Origin: a phage
Sequence record: PZ445456.1
Length of the DNA: 39,315 nucleotides
Direction: 5' to 3' (one strand)
Below are positions 1 through 39,315 of this stretch, in pieces. Both the position numbers and the translations under genes were made by a program. The notes under the pieces are model-generated. The model was not told the DNA's origin. It saw only the letters and a list, made by a program, of their open reading frames with translations, and did no database searches. Each line of letters starts with the position of its first letter. Positions within the stretch are counted from its first letter, which is position 1.

Positions 1-1761
1 ATGTCACAATCCCAAGAAGCTAAGAACGCGCTAATCATTGCGCAACTTAAGGGTGACTTCGTGGCCTTCCTGTTCGTCTTATGGAAGGCTCTGAACTTAC
101 CTAAACCAACCAAGTGTCAGATTGATATGGCACGTACACTCGCTAACGGCGACCACAAGAAGTTTATCCTTCAGGCGTTCCGTGGTATCGGGAAGTCCTT
201 TATCACCTGTGCGTTCGTTGTGTGGGTGCTGTGGCGTGACCCTCAACTGAAGATACTCATCGTGTCTGCCTCCAAGGAACGTGCTGATGCTAACTCCATC
301 TTCATCAAGAACATCATCGACCTCCTTCCGTTCCTCTCTGAGTTGAAACCTCGACCGGGACAGCGAGACTCCGTGATTAGCTTCGATGTTGGCTTGGCTA
401 AACCAGACCACTCTCCCTCTGTGAAGTCTGTAGGTATCACTGGTCAGTTGACTGGTAGCCGTGCTGACATCATTATCGCAGATGACGTTGAGGTTCCCGG
501 TAATAGCTCTACGAGTTCTGCCCGTGAGAAGCTCTGGACGTTGGTAACTGAGTTTGCTGCATTACTTAAGCCGCTGCCTACCTCTCGTGTTATCTACCTT
601 GGCACACCTCAAACCGAGATGACGCTCTACAAGGAACTTGAGGATAACAAAGGTTACAGTACAGTAATCTGGCCAGCACAGTATCCTCGTAATGACGCTG
701 AGGCTCTCTACTATGGGGACCGCTTGGCTCCGATGCTTAAGGCTGAGTATGATGAGGGCTATGAGTTACTTCGTGGTCAACCTACTGACCCTGTTCGATT
801 CGACATGGATGACCTCCGTGAACGTGAACTCGAATATGGTAAAGCTGGCTACACTCTTCAGTTCATGCTTAACCCGAACCTTAGTGATGCCGAGAAGTAC
901 CCTCTACGACTCCGTGACGCTATCGTGTGCGCTGTGGACCCTGAACGTGCCCCATTGTCTTACCAGTGGCTTCCGAACCGTCAGAACCGCAATGAGGAAC
1001 TCCCTAACGTTGGTCTGAAGGGTGATGACATCCATGCGTTCCATACGTGCTCTTCTCGTACCGCTGAGTATCAGTCTAAGATTCTGGTCATTGACCCAAG
1101 TGGTCGTGGTAAGGATGAGACCGGGTATGCAGTCCTCTACTCACTGAACGGTTACATCTACCTGATGGAAGTCGGAGGGTTCCGTGGTGGCTACGATGAT
1201 GCTACCCTAGAGAAGCTCGCTAAGAAGGCCAAGCAGTGGAAGGTACAGACAGTCGTCCATGAGTCCAACTTCGGTGATGGTATGTTCGGTAAGATTTTCT
1301 CTCCGATTCTCCTGAAGCACCATAAGTGTGCCTTAGAGGAAATCCGTGCTAAGGGCATGAAGGAGATGCGAATCTGCGATACTATCGAGCCGTTGATGGG
1401 TGCACACAAGCTGGTCATTCGTGATGAGGTTATCCGTGAGGACTACCAGACTGCTCGTGACCTTGATGGGAAACACGATGTCCGCTACAGTGCGTTCTAT
1501 CAGATGACCCGTATGACTCGTGAGAAGGGCGCTGTGGCACACGATGACCGCATTGATGCTATCGCATTGGGTATCGAGTTCCTTCGTGAAGGGATGCTTG
1601 TGGACAGCCGTGTAGGTGAAGAAGAGATGACCCTTGAGTTCCTTGAACACCACATGGAGAAACAGACCATTGGTGGTGATGCTATCCATAGCTACGAGGC
1701 TGGTGGCGTAGACATCTACTACGAGGACGATGGAGACTCTAGCTGCTTCATTGAGTGGTAA
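1..1761 (+). CDS. gp19: Terminase large subunit (T7 gp19 homolog), 586 aa
   Basis: Full-length ORF. Same length as T7 gp19 and colinear with it as recalled (MSQ..AKNALI...FRGIGKSF Walker-A-like ... DDRIDA). Its RBS AAGGAGG lies at 39302-39308 at the window end, so the window is circularly contiguous. Confidence 0.95.
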
Positions 1762-1781
1762 TAGATAATAGGAGGTATATA

Positions 1782-2228
1782 ATGAGAGTGGCAATTGATA
1801 GTATCACTGGTTGCCACATCTTCCAAGGGTGTAAGACTAAGGGTGGCTACGGTAGGATTCGTGTTAATGGTGTTCATTGGATGGCACATCGATACGCACT
1901 ATTCGTCCACCTGAAGCGTCCTTTAAGGGAAGGATGTGTGGTAATGCACTCCTGTGATAACCCTTCGTGTGTCAATCCAGCGCACTTATCTGAGGGAACA
2001 CAGAAAGAGAACATGGCTGACTGTAAGACAAAGGGCCGTATGGTTCGTGGAGGTTCTTCGGGTCCACGCAAAAGTCTTACAGAGAGGCTCCAAGAGTCAT
2101 TTGAGAAACGACTAAAGGCTGTGCTTGAGGCTAATGGCTCAGACGCTGAGGTTGCTAAGAGACTTGGTTTAAACATCCAGTGGGTCAAGAAGGCTCGATC
2201 TGGTAAACTAAATATGCACGTAAAGTGA
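1782..2228 (+). CDS. Free-standing HNH endonuclease with C-terminal HTH-like tail (148 aa from ATG 1782; the ORF track offers a GTG start at 1755)
   Basis: GGAGG at 1771-1775 lies 6 nt before ATG 1782. HNH_3-type motif string: C..GC..KGGYGRI....HWMAHRYA ... HSCDNPSCVNPAHL..GT..EN. The C-terminal AEVAKRLGLNIQWVKKARSG looks like a helix-turn-helix. Rare codons (AGG, AGA, CGA, CTA) are enriched relative to core genes. T7 has no gene at this position as I recall it. Confidence 0.8.
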   Translation: MRVAIDSITGCHIFQGCKTKGGYGRIRVNGVHWMAHRYALFVHLKRPLREGCVVMHSCDNPSCVNPAHLSEGTQKENMADCKTKGRMVRGGSSGPRKSLTERLQESFEKRLKAVLEANGSDAEVAKRLGLNIQWVKKARSGKLNMHVK

Positions 2229-2294
2229 CTTACTATGCACTATGGGCACCCTATTGAGTGAGGTATAAAAACCTAATGAAATCAAGGGTGTCCC

Positions 2295-2317
2295 TAATAC
2301 GACTCACTATTGGGAAG
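2295..2317 (+). promoter_or_regulatory. Phage RNAP promoter, phiOR position
   Basis: TAATACGACTCACTATTGGGAAG, with predicted +1 at G2312. It lies between gene 19/HNH and gene 19.5, as T7 phiOR does. Confidence 0.85.
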
Positions 2318-2476: not shown

Positions 2477-2632
2477 ATGCGCTTACTATCCGTGCTCAAG
2501 ACACTGGCAACGCATCGAGTGACTTACAAATTTCTCGTTGTACTTGCTGCTTCCATTGGTCTCGCATCTAGTGCTGAACACATCGGTGAACTGGAGACTC
2601 TGCTTTGTTCTCTACTCACTTGTGTTCCTTAG
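2477..2632 (+). CDS. gp19.5: gp19.5 homolog (51 aa)
   Basis: AAGGAGG at 2463-2469 precedes ATG 2477. The translation MRLLSVLKTLATHRVTYKFLVVLAASIGLASSAEHIGELETLLCSLLTCVP is colinear with T7 gp19.5 as recalled (..RHRVTYRFLVVLCAALGYASL...SILTCSD). It is absent from the ORF track because it is under 60 aa. Confidence 0.75.
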   Translation: MRLLSVLKTLATHRVTYKFLVVLAASIGLASSAEHIGELETLLCSLLTCVP

Positions 2633-3218: not shown

Positions 3219-3241
3219 TAATACAACTCACTATTGAGGAT
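3219..3241 (+). promoter_or_regulatory. Phage RNAP promoter, phiOL position
   Basis: TAATACAACTCACTATTGAGGAT. It carries the same CGA-to-CAA and GGG-to-(A/G)AG deviations as T7 phiOL (TAATACAACTCACTATAAGGAGA). Confidence 0.75.
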
Positions 3242-19039: not shown

Positions 19040-19267
19040 ATGGCATGGCGATACAGGATTCGGGAAGTCCGAATGACTACAGGTGAGACTTTATATTACC
19101 CGCAGTTCCGTCATGAGTGGTTCCCGTTCTGGTGCCACTTTAAGGACTACCCGGAAGAACGAAGGGTGTCATTCACTTACTACAGTGATGCGCTTGAGTT
19201 CGTCAATGAGTCTAAATCCACTGATGAACCTGAAGTAAAACAGGTTGTCAAGAATCATTATCTTTAA
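19040..19267 (+). CDS. Hypothetical 75-aa protein (occupies the T7 gene 5.3 position)
   Basis: AGGAGG RBS. Trp/Phe/Tyr-rich N-terminal half and acidic C-terminal half. No HNH motif and no recognised homolog. Confidence 0.6.
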   Translation: MAWRYRIREVRMTTGETLYYPQFRHEWFPFWCHFKDYPEERRVSFTYYSDALEFVNESKSTDEPEVKQVVKNHYL

Positions 19268-21575: not shown

Positions 21576-21917
21576 ATGGGTTGGGGTAAAAAGATTAAGA
21601 AGGCTGTCAAGAAAGTAACCAAGCCTGTAGAGAAAGCTGTTAAGCAGGTCGGTAAGGCTGGTGAAGACATCGTTAAAGGTGCTGCTGGTGTCGTTGGTGG
21701 TGTTCTGTCTGGTGGTAAACCAGATGTTCAAGTCGTTGAGACCCCTGCTGCTGTACAGGCTGCACCTCCGGCTGCACAGATTATCGAGCCACCGAGTAAA
21801 GACGATGTAGACTCCGATGATGATGCACAGACTGAATCCGGCAAGAAGAAAGCTCGTGCTGGTGGTAAGAAGTCTCTGAGTGTCGCTCGTAGTTCTGGCG
21901 GTGGTCTGAATATCTAA
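21576..21917 (+). CDS. gp7.3: gp7.3 homolog (tail/host-range virion protein), 113 aa
   Basis: KK.KKAVKKVTK.V.K ... AQTESG.KKARAGGKKSLSVARSSGGG.NI matches T7 gp7.3. No gene 7 homolog lies between 6.7 and 7.3. Confidence 0.9.
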   Translation: MGWGKKIKKAVKKVTKPVEKAVKQVGKAGEDIVKGAAGVVGGVLSGGKPDVQVVETPAAVQAAPPAAQIIEPPSKDDVDSDDDAQTESGKKKARAGGKKSLSVARSSGGGLNI

Positions 21918-21930
21918 TTAAGGAGGCACT

Positions 21931-23538
21931 ATGGCAAGCTCACAGAAACGTGAAGGCTTCGCGGAGAATGGTGCCAAGGCGGTGTATGACGCATTGAAGA
22001 ACGACCGGAACTCCTATGAGACCCGTGCGGAAAACTGTGCGAAGTACACCATCCCTTCGTTGTTCCCCAAAGACTCCGACAACGCCTCTACTGACTACAC
22101 CACTCCGTGGCAAGCAGTTGGCGCTCGTGGCTTGAACAACTTGGCCTCTAAGCTCATGCTCGCTCTGTTCCCTATGCAGACGTGGATGAAGCTGACAATC
22201 TCTGAGTTCGAAGCGAAACAATTGGTTGCACAACCAGCCGAACTAGCGAAGGTCGAAGAAGGTCTCTCAATGGTCGAGCGAATCTTGATGAACTACATCG
22301 AGTCCAACTCGTACCGTGTGACACTCTTTGAGACCCTCAAGCAGTTGGTCGTTGCAGGTAACGCTCTGCTCTACATTCCTGAACCTGAAGGTGCTTACAA
22401 TCCCATGAAGCTATACCGCCTGTCTTCTTATGTTGTCCAACGAGACGCATTCGGCACGGTGCTACAGATTGTAACCTTAGATAAGACTGCCTATGCAGCA
22501 CTTCCAGAAGACGTGCGAAACGCTATGGACTCCGGTCAGGAACATAAAGGCGACGAAATGATTGATGTGTACACTCACATTTATCTTGACGAAGAAACAG
22601 GAGAATACCTCAAGTACGAAGAGATTGATGGTGTCGAAGTCGAAGGTACAGATGCTTCTTATCCGGTGGACGCTTGTCCTTATATCCCGGTTCGCATGGT
22701 ACGCATTGATGGAGAATCATATGGTCGCTCTTACTGTGAGGAATACTTAGGTGACTTACGGTCCCTTGAGAACCTCCAAGAAGCTATCGTTAAGATGTCA
22801 ATGATTAGTGCAAAAGTTATCGGCTTGGTTAACCCTGCTGGTATCACACAGGTTCGTCGTTTGACCAAAGCACAGACAGGTGACTTCGTGTCCGGTCGTC
22901 CAGAAGACATCTCGTTCCTTCAGCTTGAAAAGGCCGCAGACTTCTCTGTAGCGAAAGCTGTGAGTGAACAGATTGAGGGCCGACTGTCCTATGCCTTTAT
23001 GCTTAACTCCGCTGTTCAACGTACTGGTGAGCGTGTGACTGCCGAAGAGATTCGATATGTCGCATCTGAACTCGAAGATACCCTTGGTGGTGTCTATTCG
23101 ATTCTCTCACAGGAACTTCAGTTGCCAATGGTTCGTGTCCTGCTGAAGCAACTTCAAGCGACCAATCAGATTCCTGAGTTACCGAAAGAGGCCGTTGAGC
23201 CTACTATCAGTACCGGGATGGAAGCATTGGGTCGTGGTCAAGACCTCGATAAGCTGGAACGCTGTATTGCTGCGTGGTCTGCGCTGGCTCCTATGCAGGG
23301 AGACCCGGACATCAACATTGCGACCATTAAGTTGCGCATTGCGAACGCTATCGGCATCGACACTTCTGGTATCCTCAAGACACCTGAAGAGAAACAACAG
23401 GAGATGGCTGAGGCTGCTCAAGGTACTGCACTGGAGAACGCTGCTGCATCTGCTGGTGCTGGTGCTGGTGCACTTGCTACTGCAAGCCCTGAGAACATGC
23501 AAGCTGCTGCTGAACAGGCTGGAATGGTTCCAAATTAA
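21931..23538 (+). CDS. gp8: Portal (head-tail connector) protein (gp8), 535 aa
   Basis: Size and position match the T7 gp8 portal. AAGGAGG RBS. The stop lies inside the phi9 promoter TAATAC. Confidence 0.95.
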   Translation: MASSQKREGFAENGAKAVYDALKNDRNSYETRAENCAKYTIPSLFPKDSDNASTDYTTPWQAVGARGLNNLASKLMLALFPMQTWMKLTISEFEAKQLVAQPAELAKVEEGLSMVERILMNYIESNSYRVTLFETLKQLVVAGNALLYIPEPEGAYNPMKLYRLSSYVVQRDAFGTVLQIVTLDKTAYAALPEDVRNAMDSGQEHKGDEMIDVYTHIYLDEETGEYLKYEEIDGVEVEGTDASYPVDACPYIPVRMVRIDGESYGRSYCEEYLGDLRSLENLQEAIVKMSMISAKVIGLVNPAGITQVRRLTKAQTGDFVSGRPEDISFLQLEKAADFSVAKAVSEQIEGRLSYAFMLNSAVQRTGERVTAEEIRYVASELEDTLGGVYSILSQELQLPMVRVLLKQLQATNQIPELPKEAVEPTISTGMEALGRGQDLDKLERCIAAWSALAPMQGDPDINIATIKLRIANAIGIDTSGILKTPEEKQQEMAEAAQGTALENAAASAGAGAGALATASPENMQAAAEQAGMVPN

Positions 23539-35300: not shown

Positions 35301-36313
35301 GCTCTCCGTTCACTAAGTTCCTAAATGGTACTTCCAACTACATTCTGGACATGGCCCGTCAAGGTGTCATGGGAGATGTGGTAACTCATGCCATTACAGG
35401 TAAGGGTGCCAACAAGTGGATTAAAGGAGACATGCTGAAATCTGCGAGTATCTCTAAGGAACAGTGGGAAGGCATTCAGAACCTCATCCGTGAGAACGTC
35501 ACTCAAGGTGCTGACGGCAAGTACACCTTCAAGGACAAGCGTAAGCTGGCTAATGACCCGCGAGCTATGGACCTGTGGCGACTGGCTGATAAGGTAGCTG
35601 ATGAAACAATGCTGAGACCACACAAGGTGTCCTTACAGGATTCCCATGCGTTTGGTGCTCCTGCTAAGTTGGTCCTTCAGTTCAAGTCTTTCGTAATCAA
35701 GTCGATGAACTCTAAGTTTATCCGCTCCGGTAACGAAGCCTTTAAGAACCATCGTGCTATGGACATGGCGCTGACCTATGCTATCTCTGGTGGCATTGCT
35801 GGCTCCTACTATGTTGCACAGGCTCACTTGAAAGCTGCTGGTCTTCCTAAAGAGCAACAGAAGGACTACTTGAAGAAAGCCCTTGACCCTAAGATGATTG
35901 CCTATGCTGCTGCGTCCCGAAGTTCACACCTTGGGTCGCCTCTGAGTATCGCAAACTTCGCTATGGGCGCTGCTGGTTATGACCAAGGTCTCATGGTCCG
36001 CTCTACGATTCTCCCGAAAGGTGAGGACAAGCGGGAACGGAACAAGGCGGTAACTTCTCGTGACATGAGTGACTCCATTATGGGTGCATTAGGTGAACAG
36101 ATTCCTGCTCTTGGATTCGCCGGGGCAACCTTTGCTGCTGGTCGAAATGCTTATGGTGTCCTTACGGCTCCTAACAAAGTGACCGAGCGTGAGATGATGA
36201 CTGGTCTGATGAACGCTCATCGTGAGATGGTTCCGAACGACCCAATCACTCAACAGATGCTCATTAAGTTCTATGAGGCTAACGGTGTTCACCTTAAGTC
36301 TGACAAGAAGTAA
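32366..36313 (+). CDS. gp16: Internal virion protein D with N-terminal lytic transglycosylase (gp16), 1315 aa, GTG start
   Basis: TAGGAGG RBS followed by a GTG start. MDKY.....(P).YD.LFQ.AAD..GVSY.LLRKV.W.ESRF.PTA.S.TGP.G.MQFTKAT ... LKAALAYNQGEGR is colinear with T7 gp16 throughout. Confidence 0.96.
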   Translation: MDKYNPNEPHEYDALFQQAADTHGVSYGLLRKVGWVESRFKPTAQSPTGPRGVMQFTKATGQAYGLQSDEDFNDPAKSIDAGARYLADLVKKYNGDELKAALAYNQGEGRNGKPQLEAYDSGNFAGIGDEGRNYLRSLLDVAKSPKSGDIESFGGITPKGKGIPFDAAMSGIGKKGKVTTELPESHSMSFQGKEQAAPNQPFGKDYWEAKGTTLDEANERSTFFGFGNAAEAELSNSTLGVAFRAGKRDNGFDVVTDVLQPTRFNSHIWSPEELERIRNEVKNPAYMNVVLGGSSENLDELIKLANENYELDAKAADAGLGAKLSAGIIGAGVDPLTYVPIAGTAANGFKLVNKALIVGAQAGALNVASEGLRTSVAGGDAHYAEAALAGMLFAGGLTAIADGVAAGLRKSGAEQIENPFAAAQMRFEARETARNTGGHDASRMPPSEDRVFSQHNGVEYSPLETEPGAVVLRDGSIISDTNLANPMTAKEFAEVDPERAAWGLPMRGLSEIGLRTLRSEHAEIRGLAKDLVRSPTGMESGSHGKFGATASDIKERLHSTNQRTYNDLYDAMKEAMADPEWSVGMFKRGAQGARQEIYRRAAIAIERPELQANLTKAERKVMDIMKEHFDLKREMMENPAMFGNKATSIFPNSRHKGTYVPHVYSREAKQLYSQALGGSDGLQEAIAASWMTSYRARPEVKARVDEHLAETLGIDPKSVTEEMVMKHARDKAYGIAKTDEFNSSSVIDDNIEGLVGIENNSFLEARNLFDSDMPVTLPNGQQFSVNDLRDFDMKHVMPAYDRRVDGDIAIMGGTGKTTAELKDSIMALDKKSEGKGTMKGEVEALKDTVKILTGRARRNQDTMGDTMVRALSDMSFFTKNAYMGLQNLTEISGLLAKGNTRAMLHGIPALRDLAFRNKPVSGKELKELHSMVFGKEFDDLIRPTRQDIIQRLRESTDTPDVAAKVVGTVKHTTQELAARSPFTKFLNGTSNYILDMARQGVMGDVVTHAITGKGANKWIKGDMLKSASISKEQWEGIQNLIRENVTQGADGKYTFKDKRKLANDPRAMDLWRLADKVADETMLRPHKVSLQDSHAFGAPAKLVLQFKSFVIKSMNSKFIRSGNEAFKNHRAMDMALTYAISGGIAGSYYVAQAHLKAAGLPKEQQKDYLKKALDPKMIAYAAASRSSHLGSPLSIANFAMGAAGYDQGLMVRSTILPKGEDKRERNKAVTSRDMSDSIMGALGEQIPALGFAGATFAAGRNAYGVLTAPNKVTEREMMTGLMNAHREMVPNDPITQQMLIKFYEANGVHLKSDKK

Positions 36314-36314
36314 T

Positions 36315-36337
36315 CAATACGACTCACTATTGGGAAG
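36315..36337 (+). promoter_or_regulatory. Phage RNAP promoter (phi17 position)
   Basis: CAATACGACTCACTATTGGGAAG. The 5' hairpin is GGGAAGGCT-cacac-AGCTTCCC. Confidence 0.88.
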
Positions 36338-36383
36338 GCTCACACAGCTTCCCTTCTATTATACCCAACTAAGGAGGTACATT

Positions 36384-38258
36384 ATGGCTCTCAAGATTCG
36401 TACCGTAATGACTTATCCGCTAACAGGTGCTGTGGACTTTGCAATCACCTTTGAATACTTAGCGCGTAAGTTCGTGACGGTAACTCTAATTGGTAAAGAC
36501 CGTAAGGAACTGGTTCTCAATCAGGACTATCGGTTCACCACTAAGACACAAATCACTACAACACGCACGTGGACGGCGGCTGACGGATATGACTCTATTG
36601 AGATTCGTCGATACACCTCCGCGACTGACCGTCTGGTTGACTTTGCTGATGGCTCAATCCTTCGTGCATATGACCTAAACATCGCACAGATTCAAACGCT
36701 TCACGTTGCTGAAGAAGCACGAGACCTCACTGCGGATACCATTGGTGTCAACAACGAGGGTCACTTGGATGCGCGTGGTCGACGCATCGTCAATGTAGCT
36801 AACCCTATAGATGATGGCGATGCAGTCAACCTGCGCTCTATCAAGCAGTGGAACGACTCCGCTCTTAACTCTGCAAACAGGGCAAAGGCTTCCGAGGAAG
36901 AAGCAAAGCGACAGACTGATTGGGCCGGACGTATGCGCAATGAGTCAGAACAGTTCCGTAACGAGGCCAATCAACACCGAGCGGTGGCTGAGTCTGCCAA
37001 GGACCAAGCAATTACCGCTAAGAATCAAGCTGAATCGGCAAGAGACCTCGCTTCAGGTTCTCGGAGTGAAGCATCAAGGTTCGCTGAAGAGTCCAACCAG
37101 TATATGTCACGGTCTAAGCAATGGGCTGTCAACCCGGTAGATGTTGTAGTCACAGATGGTGAATACTCCGCGAAGCACTGGCAGCATCATTCTAAGGTTG
37201 AGGCCGACCGCTCGAAGAGAGAGGCTGACCGAGCAACCACTGAGGCTGACAAGCTGGGAAACATGAACGCACTTGCAGGTGCCATTGAGGAAGTAAGTCC
37301 AGACCACGTTGTTTCATGGTCGGCTACAGCTAAGTTTAAAGGTGAACTCATTGCCAACCGCTCAATGACTCTTCGTGCAGCGGATGAACAGGGTGCTATG
37401 GGACAGATGGTTCACGAATATGACGACACAGTCGGACGTCATGTCTCGAATACCTATTGGGCCATCAAGCACCCACATAGAGGAGAATGGCATGTTCCCT
37501 ATAAGATTCTAAACCTACCTAACGATTCTGCGGCGTGGGAGATGCACTTCGGGGACTTAATGCGTTGTTATAATGGATTGAAGGTCGAAGGGTTTAATAA
37601 ATCACTAGATGTAACCAATCAGGCGAATACTGCCGTTCGAACGGTGGCATATGGTCCGGGCGATTTGACCCAAGGGGCGTGGGTGTGTAACACTCGTTGG
37701 AACTTCTACGATTCAGGGTTAGAAATTGGATGGGTTCGAGGTGGTTCTACGAACGGCAACGGCCTAATCCGGTGGAAGCCGGAAGGAACTCAAGCGACAT
37801 ATCATGATATTTGGCTAAACCCGGGCGGTGTGGTGCAGTTCCCCGAGAAGATTCTCGTAGGGGCGGGTGGTGCCTCCGTTGGTGTTGATGGTAATATTGA
37901 TGGCTCACTTTGGGGTGGTAATCTATACGGCTGGCTGAACAACCGCTTAGGTGATCGACCAACGTTTGCTCAAGGAGACGGGCGCTATGTTCGAAAGAGT
38001 GCTGGTTGGGCTGAAGTATGGAGTGGTTCCGCTGGTGGTGGGGTATCCGTAGGTCTCAATCAGGATGTCCGCTGGAGAACTATCTGGATTCAAACTCAAG
38101 GCAGATGGAACCCTGTTCAGATTGGGGACGATGGGGCTTACTATATCTCGTCTATGGGTGGGTGGCTACAGTTCACAATCTCAGACAACGGGAGAACTTT
38201 CCGTAACGATGCAGACAGAAGCTCTGTTCCTACGAGAATCTTGGTTCAAACCCAATAA
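36384..38258 (+). CDS. gp17: Tail fiber protein (gp17), 624 aa
   Basis: AAGGAGG RBS before ATG 36384 (the track start 36222 lies inside gp16). The N-terminal about 150 aa (FEYLARKFV.VTLIG.DRK...DRLVDF.DGSILRAYDLN.AQIQT.HVAEEARDLT.DTIGVNN.GHLDARGRRIVN.AN) and the C-terminal tip (W..VWSGSAGGGVSV...D.R.R.IWI.......GW L.F.I..NG..F.N.AD.RSVP..I.V) are T7-like. The middle is diverged and longer. Confidence 0.95.
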   Translation: MALKIRTVMTYPLTGAVDFAITFEYLARKFVTVTLIGKDRKELVLNQDYRFTTKTQITTTRTWTAADGYDSIEIRRYTSATDRLVDFADGSILRAYDLNIAQIQTLHVAEEARDLTADTIGVNNEGHLDARGRRIVNVANPIDDGDAVNLRSIKQWNDSALNSANRAKASEEEAKRQTDWAGRMRNESEQFRNEANQHRAVAESAKDQAITAKNQAESARDLASGSRSEASRFAEESNQYMSRSKQWAVNPVDVVVTDGEYSAKHWQHHSKVEADRSKREADRATTEADKLGNMNALAGAIEEVSPDHVVSWSATAKFKGELIANRSMTLRAADEQGAMGQMVHEYDDTVGRHVSNTYWAIKHPHRGEWHVPYKILNLPNDSAAWEMHFGDLMRCYNGLKVEGFNKSLDVTNQANTAVRTVAYGPGDLTQGAWVCNTRWNFYDSGLEIGWVRGGSTNGNGLIRWKPEGTQATYHDIWLNPGGVVQFPEKILVGAGGASVGVDGNIDGSLWGGNLYGWLNNRLGDRPTFAQGDGRYVRKSAGWAEVWSGSAGGGVSVGLNQDVRWRTIWIQTQGRWNPVQIGDDGAYYISSMGGWLQFTISDNGRTFRNDADRSSVPTRILVQTQ

Positions 38259-38869: not shown

Positions 38870-39315
38870 ATGCTCAAGAATTTAAAGAGCTACGCCATCG
38901 CTGTGGCCTTTGTCTTGGGGATGACCCTTGCGTACAACCACGGATATGACAAAGCTAACACTAAATGGGAACAGGAGGTGCACAATGAGTACGTTAAGAA
39001 AGTTAAGGCGACTGAGGATAAACAGGCTGCTATTAACGAAGTCTCACGACAATACCAAGAAGACCTTGCGGCGCTGGAAGGCAGCACTGATAGGGTCATT
39101 AATGATTTGCGTAACGATGGTAAGCGGCTGCGTGTCAAGCTGTCAAACACCTCACGAGAGCTCCAAGCTAACGGTGGATGCCTCGCTGATGGTCGAGCCG
39201 AACTTGACGAAGAGTTTAGTAAGCGTCTTATCGGAGTAACTCAAAGAGGGGATGCGTGGATTCGTGCGCTCCAAGATACAATAACTGAAATGCAAACTAA
39301 GAAGGAGGCTAAGTA
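38870..39315 (+). CDS. gp18.5: i-spanin (Rz-like, gp18.5); the stop codon is completed only by wrapping to window position 1
   Basis: GGGAGGG RBS. N-terminal TM, then KWEQEVHNEYVKKV ... YQEDLAALEGSTDR.I.DLR.D.KRLRV ... DGRAELD ... GDAWIRALQDTI.E.Q is colinear with T7 gp18.5. The frame ends ...GCT AAG TA at 39315, and base 1 (A) supplies TAA. Confidence 0.9.
   Translation, partial: MLKNLKSYAIAVAFVLGMTLAYNHGYDKANTKWEQEVHNEYVKKVKATEDKQAAINEVSRQYQEDLAALEGSTDRVINDLRNDGKRLRVKLSNTSRELQANGGCLADGRAELDEEFSKRLIGVTQRGDAWIRALQDTITEMQTKKEAK
38985..39239 (+). CDS. gp18.7: o-spanin lipoprotein (Rz1-like, gp18.7), embedded in gp18.5 in another frame, 84 aa
   Basis: AGGAGG lies 6 nt before ATG 38985. MSTLR.LR.LR ... 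KKTL.RWK.ALIG...ICV...SGC (lipobox) ... VD.SLMVEPNLT is colinear with T7 gp18.7. Confidence 0.85.
   Translation: MSTLRKLRRLRINRLLLTKSHDNTKKTLRRWKAALIGSLMICVTMVSGCVSSCQTPHESSKLTVDASLMVEPNLTKSLVSVLSE

Follow-up and report, generated by a model that had tools for sequence, protein, structure and literature searches.

Organization of the gene 19–phiOR interval

The window analysed here, a stretch of 39,315 nucleotides from a T7-like phage of the direct-terminal-repeat type (sequence record PZ445456.1), opens with gene 19 (terL; positions 1..1761), and all features described below lie, like this gene, on the plus strand. Gene 19 encodes the large terminase subunit as a 586-aa ORF with its stop codon at 1759-1761, and a Pfam search assigned its product to Terminase-T7_RNaseH-like (E=9e-40) and Terminase_6N. 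Directly after the stop, the heptamer TAGATAA (1762..1768) is identical in alleles with and without the downstream gene and represents the left end of the ancestral gene 19–phiOR spacer, which has been retained. The two kinds of allele diverge after TAGATAA(GTA), which places the left junction within ~3 nt past the heptamer.

A ribosome-binding site, GGAGG (1771..1775), was recognized from the sequence 6 nt 5' of an ATG, and the site annotated in phage ETEP21B occupies the equivalent place. The gene that follows, a free-standing HNH_3 / His-Me-finger endonuclease gene homologous to T7 gene 7.7 (1782..2228), is intact and encodes 148 aa plus a stop codon; the ATG at 1782 is its likely start, the GTG at 1755 overlapping terL. 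The product comprises a nuclease domain (aa 1-86; 1782-2039), a linker (aa 87-98), and a three-helix HTH (aa 99-139; 2076-2198). A non-coding 3' flank (2229..2294), which is kept among alleles that carry the gene, leads to a phiOR-type promoter for the phage RNA polymerase (2295..2317). The promoter, TAATACGACTCACTATTGGGA, perfectly matches the consensus of the genome's 12 phage promoters, its equivalent in Yepe2 is annotated as phiOR, and it forms the right boundary of the segment. Gene 19.5 lies further downstream (2477..2632), a 51-aa ORF that matches PHROG 2193 (E=5e-24) and bears this name in related phages.

Because a perfect T7-type promoter starts at 2295, the interval from the gene 19 stop to phiOR measures 533 bp. 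The corresponding T7 coordinates, 39130 for the stop and 39229 for phiOR, confirm the T7 gap of about 100 bp with which an earlier sequence-only reading had contrasted this interval. That reading had also described a 148-aa HNH_3-type nuclease with an HTH-like C-terminus, starting 20 nt past the terminase stop with its own GGAGG, and the coordinates above together with the family matches below agree with this description, including the motifs it quoted. The genome contains no other HNH gene. A tblastn search of the window with T7 gp3.8, gp5.3, and gp7.7 gave the post-19 gene as its sole match, with no paralogues at the 3.8, 5.3, or 7.7 slots, and the 7.7 slot (21917-21931) is empty. The earlier placement of HNH-like ORFs at the T7 3.8 and 5.3 slots is right for gp3.8, an HNH_3 protein, and wrong for gp5.3, a PD-(D/E)XK protein; gp7.7, the nearest T7 homologue, did not figure in it. 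An Rfam scan of the window returned no matches.

Protein family, fold, and active site

The protein matched Pfam HNH_3 (PF13392) with 28.3 bits (E=1.4e-6), above the gathering cut-off of 24.8 bits, and PHROG 6254 “HNH endonuclease” with E=2e-57; an NCBIfam search with it gave no match. PF13392 is carried by all of its close homologues, and T7 gp7.7 shares 39% identity with it over 99 aa (E=7e-19). The predicted fold is nearest to those of the homing endonucleases I-HmuI and I-PpoI, the same two proteins that were matched in a profile search. We found that H56, C58, C63, H68, and N77 align residue for residue with I-PpoI H98, C100, C105, H110, and N119, and that these five residues, together with C11, do not vary among 35 homologues. 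The earlier reading had named degeneracy of the catalytic residues as a result that would count against it, and the alignment points the other way.

The five residues delimit the beta-beta-alpha-metal catalytic core (1947..2012), from H56 (1947-1949) to N77 (2010-2012), and the structure model contains the corresponding strands (52-56 and 69-73) and helix (74-84) at pLDDT >90. C11 (1812-1814) would be the fourth zinc ligand. The remaining cysteines are at positions 17, 52, and 81, and the full set (11, 17, 52, 58, 63, and 81) contains no CxxC pair. The protein thus has the catalytic His and metal-binding Asn of the I-PpoI/I-HmuI type and a Cys3His zinc site, together with a DNA-binding domain, the C-terminal HTH.

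The dN/dS ratios were 0.11-0.26 against the 9 orthologues with unsaturated dS, the only ones used, and 0.10-0.26 for the nuclease domain taken separately, by which measure the gene is under purifying selection. Such selection fits a domesticated function as well.

These data bear on the view that the gene is an inactive relic, in the form of a drifting ORF or a dead nuclease whose HTH merely binds near phiOR as a regulator. The HTH domain is present, the HNH_3 score is barely over the cut-off, and the rare codons discussed below suggest low expression. However, the catalytic and zinc-binding residues are all invariant, the nuclease domain itself is constrained, and the truly decayed copy in phage fPS-9 looks quite unlike this one, so that we regard a relic or regulator as very unlikely.

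Codon usage and expression

Rare Arg codons, to which the earlier reading had drawn attention, are indeed enriched in the HNH gene, at 8/13 compared with 23% in 25 large genes (Fisher p=0.004). Its overall codon index of 0.63 is low, yet inside the range of the other small ORFs and the tail-fibre gene. Searches for phage promoters and terminators found neither between gene 19 and the HNH ORF. The gene would therefore lack a promoter of its own and presumably be expressed late, by read-through at the end of the gene 17-19 transcript, with translation from its own ribosome-binding site. The T4 gene mobE, whose product nicks one strand, is likewise without a promoter (PMC2790892).

Occupied and empty sites across relatives

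The distance between the gene 19 stop and phiOR is bimodal among related phages, being either 81-92 bp (empty) or 526-555 bp (occupied) with none between, and the phages collection contains 58 occupied and 39 empty records. Occupied alleles are found among Berlinvirus phages, at Helsettvirus phage fPS-9 and fPS-59-like loci, and among T7-like phages with HNH genes of the Vi06/IME390 type. The cassette sits at one exact site, ~10 nt past the gene 19 stop, and the junction position agrees to within ~5 nt across occupied alleles. Alignment of the gene 19 to 19.5 intervals, as the sequence-only reading had suggested, has thus defined both the boundaries and the empty site.

The history of the gene differs from that of its surroundings. 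CarlSpitteler, the nearest genome, is empty, although its terL shares 98.1% nucleotide identity with that of the window and its downstream sequence 97-100%. The best match to the HNH gene itself reaches only 88.8% at the nucleotide level and 86-88% in protein, and no deposited allele is identical. Synonymous divergence of the HNH gene is ~2x that of terL in comparison with P1338 and D226, and ~2.5-3x in comparison with PP74 and ETEP21B, while occupied and empty genomes have terL 3' haplotypes in common as far as the stop codon. By these comparisons the history of the HNH gene is incongruent with its flanks, i.e., the gene has moved horizontally. In the terL 3' SNP tables no variant segregates with HNH presence and the flanks in the window match empty genomes best; no co-conversion tract from a known donor was found there, and the donor of the cassette is not in the databases. 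In principle, an accessory gene that is gained and lost by ordinary recombination, with no drive from an endonuclease, could also show such a patchy distribution.

In fPS-9, an 86-bp frameshifting deletion takes out exactly the catalytic core. Judged from its sequence, this is a decayed copy, which fits a cycle of invasion and decay.

The distribution also bears on whether the HNH protein is a packaging accessory that acts together with the terminase in the manner of HK97 gp74, by cutting or nicking concatemers near the junction ~0.8 kb downstream. The gene adjoins terL and lies upstream of phiOR and the pac region, Barth et al. noted that a homing endonuclease gene located at a genome terminus could be domesticated to process the ends (PMC10448857), and a Hafnia T7-like phage that lost a different terL-adjacent HNH gene formed small plaques (PMC8861465). 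A packaging role would require the HNH gene, and conservation in all close relatives is therefore expected; instead, the gene is absent from T7, from CarlSpitteler despite its 98% identical terL, and from 39 records of the phages collection, and it has lost its core in fPS-9. The family assignments differ as well. HK97 gp74 belongs to PF01844 rather than PF13392, and a direct comparison detected no similarity (BLASTP E=0.11; hhalign probability 0.1%). The [CxxC]2 zinc site of cos-associated HNH enzymes (PMC3592412) is absent here, and the partnership, known from cos phages, is specific to Terminase_1 according to Kala et al. 2014, in the form quoted in PMC8861465, whereas this terL is T7-type and the phage has direct terminal repeats. 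The HK97-style partnership, the second proposal of the sequence-only reading, was rejected because the HNH family differs, the terminase family differs, and the gene is dispensable; we consider a packaging accessory extremely improbable.

The replaced spacer and the candidate target

The cassette takes the place of a conserved 87-bp gene 19–phiOR spacer, and comparison of the alleles shows a replacement of this spacer rather than a clean insertion. The empty spacer is 96% conserved, compared with 81% at the adjacent third codon positions of terL. We also considered a clean insertion with a remnant of the target site and rejected it, the homology being weak and at most suggestive: in the Berlinvirus group, the first 35 bp of the spacer resemble the 3' end of the HNH gene (nhmmer E=0.0015-0.09; z=2.7-3.9 in shuffled global alignments), while neither method detected such homology in the T7-like group.

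The 3' flank (2229..2294) shares at most 61% identity with the empty-site spacer and is kept across alleles whose HNH genes are only ~70% identical. Adjoining the promoter, it contains an imperfect inverted repeat, GGGCACCC...GGGTGTCCC, at 2244-2293. Folded as a single RNA sequence, the flank reaches -25.5 kcal/mol (z=-2.9); a search for conserved structure with RNAalifold gave a weak consensus of -2.0 kcal/mol, with compensatory change in 3/13 pairs.

Considering its conservation and position, the target of the HNH enzyme is probably this non-coding spacer and not the terminase coding sequence. A candidate nick or cut site, in or beside the 87-bp spacer, is TAGATAAGTA^TGCGGGAAAGGTGCATAGG. The first proposal of the earlier reading, a homing endonuclease acting near the terminase/packaging region, is well supported by the comparative evidence as to the kind of element.

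A probable homing-type mobile cassette

We consider it quite likely that positions 1769-2293 constitute a mobile cassette with a free-standing homing-type HNH_3 endonuclease gene, related to gene 7.7 and with an I-HmuI-like architecture. Homing is well supported by the fold, the invariant residues, the polymorphism at one site, the uncoupled haplotypes, purifying selection, and the decayed copy, and this comparative picture is characteristic of free-standing homing endonuclease genes. During co-infection with an HNH-less relative, the enzyme would bind the empty allele and nick or cut it, most likely inside the conserved spacer, beside the insertion point. The break would then be repaired from the HNH-carrying genome by the phage recombination machinery, with gene 19 on the left and the phiOR/pac region on the right as homology arms, and the cassette would be copied in. 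The carrier itself is proposed to be immune because its own target is split and replaced. Such an element would be dispensable for the phage and might persist by over-transmission, with occasional decay. Neither for this protein nor for any of its orthologues did the literature searched demonstrate cleavage, a target site, or biased inheritance, and it contained no apparent biochemical characterization of the orthologues; for gp7.7 or the post-19 site, the only experimental information it gave was the statement that gp7.7 is removable in T7.

A different outcome of the same molecular activity would be a domesticated or weaponised nuclease that benefits the phage, e.g., by cutting competing phages or other DNA, with super-Mendelian self-copying not the main result. 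Purifying selection on both domains, retention of the gene across several genera, and its presumed late expression as part of the structural transcript are in line with it. Yet many close relatives do without the gene and the fPS-9 copy has decayed, the strict single site with shuffled flanks is what homing predicts, and we saw no NCBIfam matches and no sign of any other target; this alternative appears unlikely.

It is also conceivable, though we think it highly improbable, that the protein is a partly domesticated site-specific nickase with the 87-bp element as its natural target, and that low-level nicking near phiOR/pacB would help origin firing or duplication of the terminal repeat in concatemer processing. 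If true, T7-type phages would have their own equivalent of the partnership between HNH protein and terminase, at some point along the “gradient of selfishness” that has been proposed for terminally located homing endonuclease genes.

The homing-type gene described here is real but ordinary, since annotations of many related phages already place it in this position, among them those of Yepe2 (as “gp7.7 homolog”), Berlin, Yep-phi, PP74, and Vi06. What is new is another allele at a site recorded in dozens of T7-like phages, i.e., routine annotation. The locus nevertheless offers a clean natural system, with a near-isogenic pair of occupied and empty genomes (this phage and CarlSpitteler/Bas68), a site defined to a few nucleotides, and a natural core deletion in fPS-9; homing, the length of co-conversion tracts, and competitive effects are therefore directly measurable in T7-like phages. 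The comparison also flags an 87-bp non-coding element beside phiOR that is more conserved than neighbouring synonymous sites.

Comparison with known systems

Orthologues downstream of gene 19, annotated as “gp7.7 homolog” or “HNH homing endonuclease”, are present in Yersinia phages Yepe2, Berlin, Yep-phi, and YpP-G, Salmonella phage BP12A, E. coli phages P1338, D226, and ETEP21B, and Pectobacterium phage PP74, with more distant ones in Salmonella phage Vi06 (“7.7”) and IME390. They resemble the gene in the window in site, length (144-156 aa), domain order, and the conserved 3' flank, and their proteins are 70-88% identical to its product (~50% for the Vi06 group). This allele differs in belonging to a genome whose closest relative has no HNH gene. 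T7 gp7.7 and gp3.8 are HNH_3 proteins that combine this domain with a zinc-binding loop, as here, and gp7.7 shares the HTH-like C-terminal tail; gp7.7 is non-essential, and its slot differs, lying between genes 7.3 and 8, where this genome is empty.

Of the two structural matches, I-HmuI (PDB 1u3e; Bacillus phage SPO1) is an intron-encoded HNH enzyme, 20% identical and without the Cys3His zinc site, whereas the present gene is free-standing and intergenic. I-PpoI (PDB 1a73; His-Cys box) is encoded in a eukaryotic intron, forms a dimer, and has a second zinc site but no HTH, and its sequence similarity to the HNH protein is marginal (E ~1 with a single sequence, 0.008 with a profile). HK97 gp74 and the cos-site HNH nickases are alike in that an HNH-superfamily nuclease gene lies beside the terminase genes near the genome end, but gp74 is essential for cos cleavage, while the HNH gene here is dispensable.

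T4 MobE is similar to the arrangement that we propose, being a free-standing HNH enzyme whose promoterless gene is expressed by read-through from an upstream essential gene (PMC2790892). In phages that lack the homing endonuclease gene, MobE nicks the neighbouring locus on one specific strand, and it is inherited at high frequency (PMC2790892). It differs in belonging to another phage family and in targeting the nrdB coding sequence, whereas the candidate target here is a non-coding spacer.

Results

Setting and annotation of the HNH gene

The window is a circularly permuted T7-like genome of the Berlinvirus / BA14 type, and over a 25-kb stretch it shares ~93% identity with Escherichia phage CarlSpitteler (Bas68), PhiV-1 and relatives. 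Gene 19, encoding the large terminase (terL) with a T7-type RNaseH-like terminase domain, spans 1-1761 (stop codon 1759-1761) and is followed by a GGAGG at 1771-1775 and by the HNH gene, which runs from an ATG at 1782 to 2228; its 148-aa product has the motifs quoted in the sequence-only reading. A phiOR-type phage promoter starts at 2295 (+ strand); it is a perfect copy of the genome's phage-promoter consensus, of which the window holds 12 sites, all on the + strand, with 0 expected by chance, and it is the counterpart of the feature annotated phiOR in Yepe2. The gene 19 stop and phiOR are 533 bp apart here, as compared to 99 bp in T7 (stop 39130, phiOR 39229), close to the ~100 bp first given for T7. 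The sequence-only reading was thus borne out on the GGAGG, the start 20 nt after the terminase stop, the length of the product and the 533-bp interval, while the plausible start is the ATG at 1782 instead of a GTG at 1755. Downstream of 19.5, at 3219-3239, is a more diverged promoter-like site (3 mismatches); it is probably a phiOL-equivalent past the collapsed terminal repeat, which would place the concatemer junction within the window, ~0.7-0.9 kb past the HNH gene.

The Yepe2 record lists the HNH gene at the same place as 'gp7.7 homolog', directly followed by a phiOR annotation, and many records name it 'HNH homing endonuclease' or 'predicted endonuclease 7.7'. For the post-19 HNH gene, our literature search brought up no experimental work; the sole match on gp7.7 states that T7 can be freed of it. 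As the gene has been annotated since Yepe2 and no experimental study was found, the window carries a new allele of a known, annotated element, which is real, correctly described and ordinary. Its initial description was accurate overall, with corrections to the start, the nearest T7 protein and gp5.3.

Protein family and active site

Pfam places the HNH protein in HNH_3, slightly over the curated cut-off, with sub-threshold matches to a homing-endonuclease zinc loop and an HTH (helix-turn-helix) family, and PHROG 6254 ('HNH endonuclease') covers it end to end (E=2e-57). In a confident AlphaFold model (pLDDT 88.6), an N-terminal beta region precedes the beta-beta-alpha core (strands 52-56 and 69-73, helix 74-84), and a linker of lower confidence connects this core to a three-helix C-terminal domain, in agreement with the proposed HNH_3-type nuclease with an HTH-like tail. 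The homing endonucleases closest to the predicted fold are I-HmuI and I-PpoI, and a profile search against PDB sequences also returned these two. In a pairwise HMMER alignment, H56, C58, C63, H68 and N77 fall with identical spacing on I-PpoI residues 98, 100, 105, 110 and 119, which we take from the published structure to be the general base (98), three ligands of the first zinc site (100, 105 and 110) and the metal-binding Asn (119). Residues C11, G22, Y23, G24, H36, H56, C58, D59, N60, C63, H68, L69, G72 and N77 are invariant in a 35-sequence alignment. Since the catalytic residues are both invariant and aligned to I-PpoI, the active site is intact, and the refuting condition of degenerate catalytic residues falls away.

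Occupied and empty alleles

We compared 80 IMG/VR loci with related terminases, plus GenBank loci. Between the gene 19 stop and the phiOR-type promoter, these loci have either 81-92 bp (empty) or 526-555 bp (occupied) and no other spacing, and every member of the longer class carries an HNH-gene homologue. Occupied Berlinvirus genomes include Yepe2, Berlin, Yep-phi, BP12A, P1338, D226, ETEP21B and PP74, and occupied loci outside Berlinvirus include Helsettvirus phage fPS-9 and fPS-59-like loci. T7-like phages (terL ~80% aa identical to that of the window) are also occupied, by Vi06/IME390-type HNH genes whose proteins are ~50% identical to the window's. No homologue follows gene 19 in any of ~50 loci of a more distant terminase group (terL C-terminal part 67-68% identical) or in three T3-promoter-type loci. 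Among phage records, 58 contain most of the cassette (the HNH gene and its flanks) and 39 have an uninterrupted empty junction.

When occupied alleles are aligned with empty ones, as had been proposed, the left junction falls within 'TAGATAA(GTA)|', 7-10 nt past the stop, or the equivalent 'TTTA(TG)|' in the T7-like occupied group, and the right junction is the upstream edge of the promoter. The cassette (~1769-2293) substitutes for an 87-bp spacer rather than being cleanly inserted into it. Similarity between the first 35 bp of the spacer and the final codons of the HNH gene is weak (nhmmer E=0.0015-0.09; alignment z=2.7-3.9) and was not seen in the T7-like group; it could stem from an ancient insertion after TAGATAAGTA with later divergence.

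The spacer is non-coding and 81-87 bp long (CarlSpitteler locus 2262-2348; T7 39131-39211), and its T7 and Berlinvirus-group versions are recognisable homologues. No function is annotated for it, and phages with the cassette lack it. Across ten empty Berlinvirus-like genomes it is on average 96% identical, as compared to 81% at adjacent terL third codon positions, which argues that it is a constrained cis element. Homing enzymes typically exploit conserved sequence. Because the spacer is conserved and is the sole consistent difference between occupied and empty alleles, we infer that it, and not the terminase coding sequence, is the candidate target of the HNH enzyme.

Directly upstream of phiOR, occupied alleles carry an imperfect inverted repeat (window 2244-2293, GGGCACCCTATTGA...TCAAGGGTGTCCC). 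Its counterpart in the fPS phages is a perfect 13-bp repeat of other sequence (AGCTACCCATTGA/TCAATGGGTAGCT), a difference suggestive of compensatory change. Across alleles, the final ~35-40 bp of this flank are nearly identical and far better conserved than the HNH gene.

Mobility, selection and decay

The closest genome overall, CarlSpitteler, has an empty site; its identity to the window is 98.1% in terL, 99.1% in the last 111 bp of terL and 97-100% for 600 bp past the promoter, while the best match of the cassette reaches only 88.8% nt (86-88% protein). At synonymous sites, the HNH gene has diverged ~2-fold as much as terL from P1338 and D226, ~2.5-3-fold as much from PP74 and ETEP21B, and about as much as terL from BP12A, Yep-phi and Yepe2. 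In the last 250 nt of terL, haplotype blocks are common to occupied and empty genomes up to the stop codon, and no variant there segregates with the HNH gene. Since the occupied allele lacks the spacer, gain and loss both need recombination with the other allele, for which gene 19 and the phiOR region would serve as arms.

Purifying selection acts on the gene (dN/dS 0.11-0.26 overall, 0.10-0.26 in the nuclease domain), more weakly than on terL (0.04-0.14). In the Yersinia phage isolate fPS-9 (LT960606.1), an 86-bp out-of-frame deletion removes exactly the H...N catalytic core, and the rest of the cassette is >95% identical to fPS-59, so that fPS-9 is a natural HNH knock-out in a viable isolate. 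Its orthologue (locus 2012-2375) appears in the annotation as a pair of small 'phage proteins', g049 and g050. Invasion, a nuclease kept by selection and occasional decay are the classic life cycle of a homing endonuclease, the first of the two readings put forward from the sequence.

The rare Arg codons once read as a mark of foreign origin are indeed enriched in the HNH gene (8/13 vs 23% genome-wide, p=0.004). The codon usage of the gene as a whole is low, as it is in the tail-fibre gene and several small ORFs. The tail-fibre gene (36222-38258) has the lowest codon index among large genes, with 32/55 rare Arg codons, and the 75-aa ORF in the '5.3 slot' (19040-19267; PHROG 18049) has 6/7; both look like exchangeable modules, and their shared richness in rare Arg codons means that these are not specific to the HNH gene.

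In the related phage IMGVR_UViG_3300034358_000001, the terminase gene is split (2218-2900) by a ~650-bp insert. Rfam recognises a group I intron in this insert (RF00028, 76.6 bits), which also holds a 146-aa ORF with weak PHROG matches to homing/HNH endonuclease families and N-terminal motifs that are GIY-YIG-like by eye only. The post-19 HNH gene is present in this genome too, which marks the terminase region as a hot spot for homing elements.

Discussion

The second reading, a partnership between the HNH protein and the terminase as in HK97, fails on four counts. HK97 gp74 belongs to PF01844 and the HNH protein to HNH_3, and direct comparison detected no similarity of gp74 to the protein or its family profile. 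The [CxxC]2 zinc site that defines cos-associated HNH nickases (PMC3592412) is absent from the HNH protein. According to Kala et al. 2014, cited in PMC8861465, the partnership is Terminase_1-specific, whereas the window terminase is T7-type. Finally, T7 and phages whose terminase is near-identical lack the gene, and in fPS-9 it is inactivated. A weak form of the partnership, in which a homing endonuclease gene close to the terminus has been partly domesticated (discussed in Barth et al., PMC10448857), is no more than speculation.

The closest T7 protein is gp7.7 (39% identity, E=7e-19), ahead of gp3.8. No homologue was found at the window's own 3.8 or 7.7 slots. T7 gp5.3 is commonly placed among the 'HNH-like' ORFs; we found it (NC_001604 16483-16839) to be a PD-(D/E)XK endonuclease (PF11645, E=1e-10) and no HNH protein, which corrects the sequence-only reading.

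No phage promoter, + strand sigma-70-like promoter or terminator was found between gene 19 and the HNH ORF, and the closest phage promoter on the upstream side is at 36315. The gene is probably expressed late, by read-through and from its own RBS, resembling the read-through expression described for T4 mobE (PMC2790892). The analogy to I-HmuI and T4 MobE suggests that the enzyme may nick one strand rather than make a double-strand cut.
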